DNA of 60,876 bases, filler included, from Dirinaria sp. TL-2023a (Eukaryota): NCBI GenBank assembly GCA_051941275.1. It is 12 parts of 12 records of this genome, joined end to end, with 100 filler letters (N's around TTAATTAATTAA, not from the genome) between each part and the next. Parts side by side here need not be neighbours in the genome. Positions count along the whole stretch, not along the records: positions 35,656 to 40,629 come from JAVEBF010001744.1; 11 more parts are not named here. One strand, written 5' to 3'. Below the pieces are notes generated by a model. It was not told the origin of the DNA, searched no databases, and was given only the letters and a program-made list of their open reading frames with translations. Below are positions 35,804-40,249 of the stretch, one piece after another. Each line of letters opens with the position of its first letter. Position 1 is the stretch's first letter. The position numbers were made by a program, and so were the translations under genes.

Positions 35804-36037
35804 ATGCAGTTCTCCAACCTCATCCTGTTTCTGCTCGCCACCGCATACGTAGGACTGGCGGCTCCAGTCCCAGATTGTAAGTTTTTTAATGAGTCCCGGG
35901 GGGGGGGGTTCAAGCTCTGCGCAAGAGCCTCGTGTTCCTGCTGACTATACCCAGATTACGAGGAAGATGCTAGGTCGATTACTGAACCTCATGTGGAGAT
36001 TGCACCAGATGATTATTTGGGAGGTTTCTTCAAGTAG
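35804..36037 (+). CDS. Small secreted peptide, candidate RiPP precursor, 51 aa: MQFSNLILFLLATAYVGLAAPVPDYYEEDARSITEPHVEIAPDDYLGGFFK
   Basis: Exons 35804-35876 and 35955-36037. The intron has a GTAAGT donor, CTGAC branch point and CAG acceptor. Classic signal peptide ending LA|APVP. Adjacent to a DUF3328 gene. Confidence 0.75.
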
Positions 36038-36585
36038 GAAGAGGGTGTCGTTGAAGCTGGGAGATTGTTAGCCGTTGGCGGATAGAGTTCATCAGGATTT
36101 TGCTATATAGTATTGAGAACAAAAAATTCGACAATCGTGTCATCTATATCTTCTTCAAGAGGCCATTGTTGATCGGACAGCTCGTGCACCTAACTGTAGG
36201 TCCCCTACTAGATGAACTCGGATGCAGATGGACCGACGATTGATTTTTTATGCTATCACGCCACTTATAAGATGAGGTTATTTGCTCTGTGTGTCTGGCT
36301 TTAGGAAAATCGAGATAGAATTTCCCGGTTTCACCTTGTCACAATGTATGCGAGAAGATCGTTCCATGGAGCTAGAATCTATGCTGATTTTCGTATGTGG
36401 CGGTCCTTTACTTCTAAGATGCAATTATGCAAGAATTTGTCTTTTGCTATGGGAGAACTAAAGTCAAGGCAGTCGTGACCAAGAACGAGACTTTCTCCTA
36501 TCAAGACCTGATTACAGCATAGATGACCACGCCCTCGAGCGATTTTCCACCCGTGTTGGGTGCCTAGCTCTGTCGAATCATCTGA

Positions 36586-37484
36586 TTACTCCTCACCAGG
36601 ATGAGATATACCGGAGCCAGTAAGCCAAGGGGGAGTCGGGCTCCCCGTAGCAGAGAAAACGTAGCCATCAGGACAGAACTTGTATTTCTCAATCTGCGGG
36701 AAACCTTCAACATCTCGACCAATGTCACGATAACAGGCAGTGTGGTCCCTCGCCCATGCCTCGAGCTTGTCAAAGCTCCTGCACATTCGTGTCTGCATCA
36801 CGCCTGATACTTCTTTCTTAGAGTAGCCAGAATAACGCGGCGTGTCGTCAGCATTGCAAAGGGTGTCCTGACGCAGCGATTCAATGCAGTGGAGATTATG
36901 CTCCAGAGTCCTGTCTGCATCTGCATCCCAGGCACCAAAACTGCCTTCTACAGCTTGGAGAAGGGAGTTGCGGATCATTTGCTATTGGTGGTCAGGTTGG
37001 CGATCCCACTCGGCTGCTTTGAGCTTACCAAGCAATGCAGATTGTGGTATCCGTTGAGGAGATAGACTCCTTTGTCTCCGTCCCATGGCCACTTTTGGGC
37101 TTGTGGGAGCATCTTACCCTTCACCCAACTGTGAGGTAGAGCCACAATGCCTGGATCGACGACCCAAGAGTTCCATGCCTCATCTGCAATGGTGCGGTTG
37201 GGATGGGAGAAAATCGTGTCATCTCGGAATGGTGTTGGAACATCGCGTTCTAGGCGGGCGTAAAGAGATACGTCTTCGTGCAAAGCTTTTGGGGGCAAGC
37301 TGCGAAATGCTTGGAGAGCCCAAAGTACATTACCACACGAGGATAGTATAGCAACGAGAACCAGAACTTTCATTGCCAGTGTAATTCCAGGAGAAGATTC
37401 ACGATTGAGACTATTTGAAGAATCGATCTTTTCGCTCCATATGGGACGAGACAGGAGTCTGTATCCTTTTTGACTGGACAACAT
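36586..37484 (-). CDS. DUF3328 / UstYa-family oxidase, about 283 aa, 2 exons
   Basis: Exons 37484-37029 and 36981-36586. N-terminal TM anchor, ADEAW, twin HxxHC motifs (YLLNGYHNLHCL and HNLHCIESLRQDTLCNADDT), and RMCRSFDKLEAWA. Confidence 0.92.
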
Positions 37485-38648
37485 AATACAAGTGGGTTGT
37501 AGTAGAGGATGTTAATGTCGCTTGCAGTTTTGTGTCATGGGAGGTTTTTCAGATAATGTTCTAAATGATCAGAATATAGAATGAAGGAGGGAGACGATTG
37601 TACCTCTACTTGGGCCTACAAGACGCAGGTAAAAGGCTATGAAATTCACCCACTGGTTTCAATTTGGTATATTGGCCGAAGCAGGGTATCTCATTCGCAA
37701 ACGCATGCCATGCTCCCTGTTCGCATGACGCAGAGAAGCATCCCCGGCTCGGCGTTGTCCTTGCGGCCACCCACATGAGGTGTCACAGATTGTGCGGCTG
37801 ACGCTGTAGCTATGTCCGACCGATCCTTGCTAGCTGAGAGCATTGCCATCACTTCATTACGCCGAGTCAAATGCGTTCCCAAAGAGACGAGGCAGAATGT
37901 GGCCGCTGATGCGGTCCTAACTGGCGCGCTTGGCGAACAAGGCAACTGGGCTAAGGTAAGATTACTATGTACGGAGATCGACGACATAAGTCCTGGCTAA
38001 GTGGCTAGCGTCACGTACGCCAAGGCCAGTCGTCCAGGTAACTACAGGTAGACTTTGAAGAGCCTGGGTAGCAAATTGGAACGCTCGGGTGATAATATTA
38101 GGTGGTCCCCTAGGCGACTTTCAGCTGACTCCACCTGTAGCATTGACCGCGCTAGCCAGGACTTATGGCGCGGACCTCCGTATCTGGATACAGTAACACT
38201 CCTCCGAGCTCCCAACCGTACATACGTATGATTGATCGTCATCCAGCAGCATTTCAGGCTACCTTAGTTGCGTTCACCCCATCAATGGTTCCATTATTCC
38301 CGAACCATGCACGTACGAAACCATTTGCAGTGACCCAGCAAAACCGTTCGTCAATGACGCACTTGTGCTGCTATGTCCGCCAGATCCGAGTAGATCGACA
38401 TCAGCCCCTCCGGAGGCGTATGCCTCAATGCGCATCTTGAAACAGACCTTGCAGTCGAGGTTACAATTCGAAGTCATAAGACCGCCGCCTGGCGCAACTT
38501 GAGCCAGCGCTTTGCCTTCCTTTCCCTTGCTGCCAGCGAAGGTCGCTGATCCCGGACTATTTTGCCGATGCGTCCGATGTAAAGCCCCAGAGTGAAATTC
38601 GACATTCGCGCGTATCCTTCTGCTTCCGCTATAGCTTACAGGTTTGTT

Positions 38649-40249
38649 ATGGCTTATACTTTGGGAATTTTGGGGGCAATTGCCACAATATATTCGATCT
38701 CATATGCTCTCCGAGCATGGTCATTGCGTTCTCGTTTCCGCAAAGCTTCGCATCAATTTGGCTGCAAGCTACCAATACGTTATCCTAATTGGGACCCGTT
38801 CTTAGGCATAGACCTTTTCGCCATCCTCCGCCAGGCTGATCGTCATGGGCGGCGTTCACTTGCTTACGCGAATCTCCACAAACATTATGGAACGACTTTC
38901 GAGATGAAGGCTTTGAGCGTTTCCATACAAACCGCAGACGCGGAAAATATTCAGGCTATATCAGCTACAAAATTCAACGACTTTGGTGTCGGTCCGATAA
39001 GAGGCAACATTGGTGCCCCATTCCTGGATCGAGGTGTCTTTACAGATGATGGGGAGTTCTGGAAACATTCCAGAGCGCTTATACGGCCTACTTTCAATCG
39101 AGCGGGAATCGCAGACCTGAACAGCTTTGAGCGACATGTTGGCCGTTTCTTAGCTCTTATTCCAAAAGATTCAAGTGCTTTCGATATGCAGCCTTTGGTG
39201 AAAAGACTGGTGAGCTCCCATTGTCCTTGTTGTGTTTAATAAGGGATTTAATGCTTTGCTCTCAGTTTCTAGACACCTCTAGTGAGTTTCTTTTCGGGCA
39301 ATCGATAGAGTCGCTTCTCCCACAGACTCCATTCGACACTGCAGAGTTCATGAAAGCATTCGATTACTCTCTACTTGGGTTGGCACTTCGACTCCTTGCC
39401 GGACCTCTCAAATTCCTCTTTTTCTTCGACCCAACTTGGAAAAAGGCCTATACTAAAGTTCATGCCTTTGTTGATAGGCATGTAGCCCATGCAATCGAGA
39501 AGCATCGAGAGATCACCAAAGGTGGGAAACCTATCAGTCATGCTGCGCCGCCAAAGTACATCCTCCTTCACGAAATGGCAGCAGAAACTCAGGATCCTTA
39601 TTACTTGAGATCACAGATCTTGAACGTCTTCTTTCCCGCACGGGATACAGCAGCGATTGCCTTTGGTAATATCATGTTCGAACTCGCCCGACAGCCGCGA
39701 ATTTGGCAGGATCTCCGCGCAGAGGTCCTTCGTATTGGCTCGCAGATCATCACTTTTGAGCTTCTTAAGAGTCTTAAAGTTGTCAAAGCTGTTATCAACG
39801 AAACACTCCGTTTGCATCTTCCAGCATCACGGATAACCCGTGTCGCCCTTCGGGATACCGTACTTCCTGTCGGCGGCGGCGGTGATGGAAGATCGCCACT
39901 TTTTGTGACCAAGGGCCAGCTGGTGGAAATGGACCTATTCACGCTTCAGAGAGATCCTGATATTTGGGGTCACGATGCGCACGAATTTAAGCCAGGCCGT
40001 TGGGACGAAGGCCGGCCGTTGTGGGAAGCTAAGTGGCAGTATGAACCTTTCTTAGGCGGCATGCGTATGTGTCCAGCTCAAGGTCAAGTCCTCCTGCAGC
40101 TTGCTTATCTACTAGTAAGAGTGACTCAAGAATTTGAATCTATAGAGAATAGGGATGAGGAGATTAATTACATAGAAGAGATAAAGATGACAGTGGAAAG
40201 TAGGAATGGCGTCAAGATTGCACTAATCCCAGCTCAGTGCAGCGATTGA
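38649..40249 (+). CDS. Cytochrome P450 (CYP52 clan-like), about 514 aa, 2 exons
   Basis: Exons 38649-39209 and 39266-40249. N-terminal anchor, GVFTDDGEFWKHSRALIRPTF, I-helix FFPARDTAA, ETLRL, FKPGRW and heme motif PFLGGMRMCPAQ. Confidence 0.93.

Follow-up and report, generated by a model that had tools for sequence, protein, structure and literature searches.

The window analysed here, a stretch of 60,876 nucleotides composed of contigs of Dirinaria sp. TL-2023a (genome G000) joined by N linkers, contains a 4974-bp contig (G000:C1744, filling positions 35656-40629) on which three genes of this lichen-forming Lecanoromycete lie next to each other, namely those for a secreted peptide, a DUF3328/UstYa oxidase and a cytochrome P450 (P450). 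Together they probably constitute a dikaritin-type cassette for a peptide that is made by ribosomes and then altered post-translationally (RiPP), in this case a modified YLGGFF hexapeptide. That the peptide is the substrate of the DUF3328 protein is very likely; slightly less firmly than for the cassette as such, we also favor a side-chain Tyr macrocycle through Tyr1 as the product and a P450 that acts on the peptide. The cassette is real, conserved and apparently undescribed in the searchable literature.

The gene models of an earlier reading of this stretch, made without database searches (in the following, the sequence-only reading), were confirmed: a spliced gene for a peptide of 51 amino acids (aa), a convergent gene for a 283-aa DUF3328 protein and a divergent gene for a 514-aa P450, all on the same contig and with intact reading frames and splice sites (Table 1). 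The precursor gene (+) runs towards the DUF3328 gene (-), from which the P450 gene (+) diverges, and the spacings given as about 550 bp, 1.16 kb and 150 bp were borne out as 548 bp (precursor to DUF3328, stop to stop), 1164 bp (DUF3328 to P450, ATG to ATG) and 148 bp (contig start to precursor ATG). A PF11807 search had been proposed for the 36586-37484 product, and Pfam UstYa matched it above the curated cut-off, in both exons; the two expected HxxHC motifs are present as HNLHC at aa 147 and aa 180. A DUF3328 protein with two such motifs, encoded adjacent to the precursor, is a feature of dikaritins. The NCBI models of the enzymes are N-terminally shorter (P0001, 246 aa, for DUF3328; P0036, 412 aa, for the P450); the start codons used here are backed for both enzymes by translated contigs of equal length (P0177, P0179). 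The 51-aa peptide itself was absent from a profile search of proteins 14-196 aa long and thus seems unannotated.

Transcript evidence was obtained as RNA contigs from four runs of one lichen sample in one study. Because these contigs are mostly 90-99% identical to the window, they derive from a relative and not from the same strain. They skip exactly the predicted introns of all three genes (counts in Table 1), and precursor exon 1 is covered in three of the four runs. The proposal had been said to fail if the peptide were not spliced, and the precursor intron is indeed removed in the relative's RNA. Between the relative and the window, the DUF3328 proteins share 96% identity. Contig depths were 115-576 for the precursor, 9-38 for DUF3328 and 2-18 for the P450, with run X3 lacking precursor coverage; as contig depth is unable to rank genes, its use as an expression ranking was discarded. 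The relative's precursor transcript (35708-36035; X1, X2, X4) appears as short contigs of unequal depth, which branch near 35808 and 35990 and cease to match at 36035. This suggests several alleles, paralogues or another 3' end, possibly with more repeats.

To place the precursor, the 30-codon frame over its exon 2 was searched with phmmer against 1.84 billion representatives. Five matches were obtained, of which three are genuine precursor homologues; P0157 and P0160 were dropped as unrelated repetitive proteins. A profile search added one further homologue among 1708 candidates. All four homologues consist of two to three copies of A-[PSL]-x-x-YLGGFF (three in P0156, P0158 and P0159, two in P0164), and their cores are followed by KR or RR in 9 of 11 cases, by K-E-R in one, while one stands at the record end. 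Including the window gene, YLGGFF is invariant in 12/12 cores of five precursors, so that the core guessed earlier as YLGG(FF) resolves to YLGGFF, the same in all homologues found. Precursor lengths range from 51 to 112 aa, two of them probably being partial. The window gene matches the first repeat of its homologues, terminating in Lys-stop; it has one core and no KR or RR, and hence lacks the multi-core, Kex2-processed arrangement of dikaritins. As judged by hydropathy only, it does have their N-terminal signal peptide for the endoplasmic reticulum (ER), with a hydrophobic stretch from aa 7 and a small-residue cleavage context common to P0156 and P0164.

Judged from its sequence, the window gene therefore belongs to a conserved family of dikaritin-type precursors, as a member with one core and without a Kex2 site. 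The single-core claim of the sequence-only reading thus holds for the window copy but not for the family, which is normally a Kex2-processed protein of two to three repeats. A decayed second repeat 3' of the stop was considered and rejected, as neither DNA alignment (p 0.51) nor degenerate-codon edit distance (p 0.35) was significant. With the queries used, no further precursor copies were found in G000, and two other exact YLGGFF-coding matches in this genome had no precursor context.

Conserved linkage between precursor and enzymes was found pairwise. In the case of Cudoniella acicularis, precursor G7Y89_g3061 lies two locus tags from P450 g3059, and in the case of Botrytis sinoallii, precursor EAF02_002303 lies two locus tags from P450 002305, each pair on the same contig; both P450s were retrieved independently, by a search with the window P450. 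Orthologous loci without a neighbouring peptide had been named beforehand as a point that would count against the proposal, and in these two genomes a precursor with the same core does stand near the P450. For the two enzymes, 34 non-self DUF3328 relatives were compared with the best 120 of 322 P450 relatives. In nine of the 34, the longest contig is exactly the same size as that of a P450 relative (offset control: mean 0.1, maximum 2), an indirect sign of DUF3328-P450 linkage; eight of the 34 are on contigs below 4 kb, which leave little room for both genes. At the DNA level, a metagenome scan yielded one such locus, on three near-identical contigs of one soil fungus (L042-L044), where the P450 and DUF3328 genes stand head to head as in the window and are flanked by genes for a FAD oxidoreductase and a GH2 glycosidase. 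The GTDB and viral collections held no relative. Distances among ten contig-matched DUF3328/P450 pairs were correlated (Mantel r 0.54, p 0.0002), which is explained by shared ancestry alone and was not counted as co-evolution of the enzymes.

The P450 tree comprised 119 sequences, namely 117 of the 120 matches (three, too short after trimming, were dropped), the P450 of L043 and a paralogue on contig C402 as the root. All 13 cassette-linked P450s fall into one clade of 73 leaves (FastTree support 0.84), which spans Lecanoromycetes, Leotiomycetes and one Eurotiomycete. The usual I-helix motif of P450s is AGxDT. Members of the clade instead carry PARD[TS], together with a heme motif ending in CPAQ; since both also occur in the sister clade, they are not markers of the cassette, and PA for AG is found in the 37%-identical C402 paralogue as well. 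The best PDB matches of the P450 were only human CYP3A4 and CYP3A5, and its relatives bear the database labels CYP52A12-like, alkane-hydroxylase(-like) and LepH(-like). In the DUF3328 protein, a type-II-like helix together with a conserved N-R-[ST] sequon would place the domain in the lumen, like that of CctR. A sequence search of the PDB returned no solved DUF3328 relative, the AlphaFold2 model was unusable (mean predicted local distance difference test score, pLDDT, 52), and nothing usable came from the ESM Atlas.

Table 1. Features of the three-gene locus, in window positions.
Feature	Position	Strand	Remarks
Precursor gene	35804-36037	+	2 exons, 51 aa; ATG 35804, stop 36035-36037
Precursor exon 1: predicted signal peptide (about aa 1-19/20), start of pro-region	35804..35876	+	hydropathy only
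Precursor intron, 78 nt, GT..AG	35877..35954	+	joint 35876->35955 in 2/4 RNA runs, one sample
Precursor exon 2: acidic spacer, then one core, a final Lys and the stop; dibasic site absent	35955..36037	+	
Predicted core peptide YLGGFF	36014..36031	+	same in 12/12 repeats of 5 precursors
DUF3328 gene	37484-36586	-	2 exons, 283 aa
DUF3328/UstYa exon 2; second HxxHC at 36900-36886	36586..36981	-	PF11807 50.9 bits, cut-off 25
DUF3328 intron, 47 nt	36982..37028	-	skipped in 4/4 RNA runs; position matches soil-fungus orthologue
DUF3328 exon 1: tail at the N-terminus, followed by one membrane helix (about aa 36-54)	37029..37484	-	
DUF3328 exon 1: N-glycosylation sequon aa 96; first HxxHC at 37046-37032	37029..37484	-	
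MITE-like (miniature inverted-repeat transposable element) repeat, about 213 bp, 30-bp terminal inverted repeats; shared promoter region	37970..38182	.	
P450 gene	38649-40249	+	2 exons, 514 aa
P450 exon 1: N-terminal membrane anchor, then basic residues	38649..39209	+	
P450 intron, 56 nt	39210..39265	+	skipped in 4/4 RNA runs
P450 exon 2: I-helix PARDT (aa 311), ExxR (aa 366), heme FLGGMRMC (aa 449)	39266..40249	+	

The asperipin-2a cluster of Aspergillus flavus (aprA/aprY/aprT/aprR) resembles the cassette in its aromatic hexapeptide core, its single DUF3328 protein and its very small size, with no tyrosinase among its four genes (PMC6514808). It differs in that its core FYYTGY gives rise to two Tyr-ether rings, whereas YLGGFF has one Tyr, at position 1; moreover, the cassette has a P450 in place of the transporter and the reductase, and the window precursor, in contrast, has one core and no KR. 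The features of the asperipin subgroup (two internal Tyr, bicycle, reductase, transporter) are thus absent, the P450 being the only other enzyme seen. Ustiloxin and phomopsin share a signal peptide, Tyr at core position 1 and DUF3328 with the cassette, and a P450, UstC, for which a C-S bond is hypothesised, is part of the ustiloxin cluster as well (PMC10591300). Their Tyr1-Ile3 ring needs a tyrosinase and several DUF3328 proteins (PMC7329392, PMC6514808), whereas the cassette has Gly at position 3, one DUF3328 protein and no tyrosinase or methyltransferase on the contig.

Accordingly, the Y-x-I core of the ustiloxin/phomopsin subgroup is not found, Gly being at position 3 in all 12 cores. Victorin, from Cochliobolus victoriae, has a hexapeptide core and P450 genes. 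Its core is cyclised via the side chain of the C-terminal Phe (PMC9233826), reminiscent of the P450-made ring discussed below; it differs by being chlorinated and heavily tailored, by its cluster-encoded peptidases and by the link to an internal Leu. CctR of cyclochlorotine, like the window DUF3328 protein, is membrane-anchored and has a double HxxHC, but acts on the product of a nonribosomal peptide synthetase (NRPS) (PMC12435403). In lichens, Clans R1 and R2 (Pasinato and Singh 2025, PMC12048977) are Lecanoromycete DUF3328 loci for which no repeated precursor was found, a single-core precursor being raised by the authors as a possibility. Both clans consist of Parmeliaceae clusters in which tyrosinase/methyltransferase or GNAT genes occur; the cassette differs from them by its P450 and by an identified, spliced single-core precursor that is anchored by multi-core orthologues. 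Altogether, the cassette would work like a dikaritin pathway, yet it is not, as far as its predicted genes tell, part of the ustiloxin/phomopsin or the asperipin subgroup.

We propose the following pathway, in which the Kex2/Kex1-type trimming scheme is general knowledge of the secretory pathway. The precursor would enter the ER, where its signal peptide would be removed. The membrane-anchored, lumenal dicopper DUF3328 protein would then oxidise the core, probably with the conserved A-[PSL]-x-x spacer as its recognition site; in CctR, the HxxHC motifs form a binuclear copper site (PMC12435403). In the multi-core relatives, Kex2 would cut after KR or RR and a Kex1-type carboxypeptidase would trim the basic residues. 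In the case of the window gene, Kex1-type trimming alone would do, because the stop after Lys replaces the Kex2 cut and trimming one Lys yields the same C-terminus. The N-terminal spacer would be removed by unclustered peptidases; those for ustiloxin are likewise unknown (PMC6514808). Regarding the ring, Gly at positions 3-4 makes the Tyr1-Ile3 ring of ustiloxin and phomopsin impossible. In asperipin-2a, the single DUF3328 protein is essential and proposed to form Tyr-to-beta-carbon ethers (PMC6514808). By analogy, we tentatively suggest that the Tyr1 oxygen forms an ether with the benzylic beta-carbon of Phe5 or Phe6 (-2 H, MH+ about 701.33), although this exact ring may well not be the right one. 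The P450 would add one oxygen (+16, MH+ about 717.32), before import or after re-import. The three genes might be sufficient for a modified, probably cyclic, peptide.

Several points weigh against this proposal. The product, the enzyme activities and any co-regulation of the genes are predictions, and one relative's sample, in the form of contigs, is the only RNA source. The homologues were retrieved through the core, so that its invariance is partly due to ascertainment. The gene that separates the precursor from the P450 in Cudoniella and Botrytis is assumed to be DUF3328 from the gene order in the window; no second locus with all three genes was seen in DNA, and the contig carries no transporter or peptidase gene. 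Furthermore, the reactions of DUF3328 proteins include the hydroxylation or halogenation of products that are not ribosomal (PMC12435403). Other points concern the P450. In the soil fungus, the DUF3328 gene (L043:5980-6792) has four frameshifts and one stop over about 240 aligned codons, and the P450 shows no lesion over 489 codons; in the control, the same scan of the window DUF3328 gene showed its intron only. No precursor remnant was detected in the AT-rich stretch downstream of the dead gene (p 0.25; tblastn). Thus, the P450 can, at least once, persist without cis partners, and its role is less secure than that of DUF3328. In addition, its anchor is followed by a net charge of +5, which points to a cytosolic catalytic domain, and the P450 should therefore face the cytosol while the DUF3328 protein and the peptide would be lumenal. 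From the minimal cyclic-peptide pathway of the sequence-only reading, the part of peptide and DUF3328 stands, on account of splicing, conserved core and pairwise linkage, whereas the part of the P450 has been weakened by L043.

These observations would also suit a pathway of peptide and DUF3328 only, with the P450 as a long-linked, promoter-sharing neighbour that has a lipid- or polyketide-like substrate. An intact P450 beside a DUF3328 gene with five lesions and no precursor (L042-L044), the cytosol-facing topology, relatives labelled alkane-hydroxylase-like, CYP52A12-like or LepH, and a PA-for-AG I-helix that is not cassette-specific (sister clade, C402 paralogue) are all in line with this. 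Linkage to DUF3328 or precursor, however, recurs in Lecanoromycetes and Leotiomycetes, which is unusual for a passenger, and the soil fungus may carry a second DUF3328 gene or precursor in trans; we therefore regard a passenger P450 as unlikely. Survival without DUF3328 would also suit a P450 able to act alone, i.e. one that makes or enables the ring itself, either by hydroxylating Phe5 or Phe6, with DUF3328 linking the new phenol to Leu2 or Tyr1 in a victorin-like manner, or by coupling Tyr1 and Phe directly. Its substrate would have to be either the short precursor, prior to ER import, or an intermediate that has been re-imported. Short precursors may be imported post-translationally, and all precursors found are short; a core that has a single phenol, lacks a beta-carbon at positions 3-4 and ends in two Phe, as well as a contig without tyrosinase, also agree with such a P450. 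Against it, the fungal RiPP P450s that a review of 2023 lists (PMC10591300) are tailoring enzymes; except for the ring chemistry, it is a sub-case of the explanation preferred here. We consider it improbable, and the same holds for a P450 that, as RiPP cross-linker or phenol generator, works on the short precursor from the cytosolic side, in a relay whose lumenal member is a copper DUF3328 protein. If true, this would define a fungal RiPP class that uses two compartments and two oxidases and has a YLGGFF core fixed across lichen fungi and Helotiales; it would also be the fungal equivalent of the bacterial P450s that cross-link peptides.

Two further explanations concern the peptide. It could be a linear, secreted, pheromone-like signal processed by Kex2, with enzymes that tailor something else or are merely co-regulated. 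The multi-core forms do resemble any Kex2-processed repeat protein (KEP), and an ESM Atlas feature search with P0156 pointed to an alpha-factor cluster (0.81), a lead below the bar of 0.9. In published data, however, DUF3328 neighbours were found for 0/227 putative alpha-factors and 3/216 other putative pheromones, and Tyr-containing repeats are enriched beside DUF3328 (PMC7329392); as the linkage to the P450 is also kept in two Helotiales genomes, a linear signal is highly unlikely. Alternatively, the window copy could be the degenerating remnant of a multi-core gene, with little or no product, as its single core without KR, the decay of the cassette in the soil fungus and the mobile-element-like repeat in the shared promoter might imply. 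Frames and splice sites are intact, though, the relative keeps a nearly identical DUF3328 protein and splices its genes, the stop is followed by no significant relic of a second repeat, and the first repeat of two complete multi-core relatives likewise lacks an upstream KR. A remnant is therefore the least probable of these explanations, and a modified peptide made by the cassette is the one we retain.

As to the surroundings of the cassette, the repeat between the two enzyme genes has at least about 40 similar places elsewhere in G000, with copies also in the relative's RNA contigs, and is probably a passenger. For the left end of the contig no overlapping contig was found. At the right end, contig C2160 (2.9 kb) adds about 2.8 kb and ends in a repeat, with no gene detected by open reading frame (ORF) listing and one Pfam scan. 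Tyrosinase, methyltransferase or further DUF3328 genes were found neither on the contig nor on its right-hand overlap contig nor in the L043 flanks, and no NRPS or polyketide synthase was seen at the locus.

In full-text literature, YLGGFF and its variants gave only two papers, both unrelated, and no description of the cassette emerged from the searchable text of papers that treat DUF3328 together with P450s, Botrytis, lichens or Kex2 (including PMC6941272). The motif terms are absent from the searchable supplements of PMC7329392, PMC6339444 and PMC12048977, and in the searchable part of Table S2 of PMC7329392, the accessions close to those of the Rutstroemia or Botrytis P450s (six prefixes) include none of a KEP. 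As the searchable rows of that table give accessions instead of sequences, and figures such as hidden Markov model logos are unsearchable, the YLGGFF family may be listed unnamed elsewhere. The earlier statement that no described product could be matched is so far in agreement with the searchable literature. The dikaritins characterised up to 2022 number only five (PMC10512285), and only three fungal RiPPs were known to use P450s, none of them mechanistically settled (PMC10591300). Precursor mining based on tandem repeats (PMC7329392, methods) would miss a single-core, KR-free precursor. The window gene is a concrete spliced example of such a precursor beside a lichen DUF3328 gene, the case raised in PMC12048977. 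Since the core is defined, the enzymes are two in number and culturable fungi carry orthologues, the proposal is testable with three genes. That the core is identical in two or more fungal classes points to a conserved target or a role in signalling, more than to a toxin that evolves fast. The significance is tempered by the hundreds of uncharacterised KEP/DUF3328 types already predicted, and likewise by UstYa matches on 16 contigs of G000 itself.

Some of these other DUF3328 loci of G000 showed features of their own. On C402 (L009/L076, about 15600-16100, -), a precursor with at least ten repeats of the unit DAIAYPDSY-KR lies beside another DUF3328 gene; as judged by eye from the ORF list, this contig also has one ORF resembling an ammonia-lyase, one resembling a methyltransferase, and a related P450. 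On C921 (L010), a precursor with the Tyr-free unit GVDVADGF, followed by KR or RR, stands beside a DUF3328 paralogue which, at 41% identity, is among the paralogues closest to the window DUF3328. On C2329 (L034, -), a precursor with the unit DTYVGGVE-RR is found beside a DUF3328 match, its Y-x-G-G resembling YLGGFF. A P450 paralogue at the end of C1273 (L074:7323-7771), 60% identical over its first 149 aa and truncated by the contig end, is divergent from a fungal transcription-factor gene, not from DUF3328. Within 10 kb of contig C250 (L077, G000:C250:3000-12900), two DUF3328 genes are accompanied by two P450-like genes and by an ORF that resembles an O-methyltransferase; a simple scan found no repeat precursor there. 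Finally, signal-peptide-like ORF starts lie at most 1.5 kb from DUF3328 at L022:708 (C119), L017 minus (C24) and L032:3011 (C25); these ORFs, which have no obvious repeats, are candidate single-core or spliced precursors.

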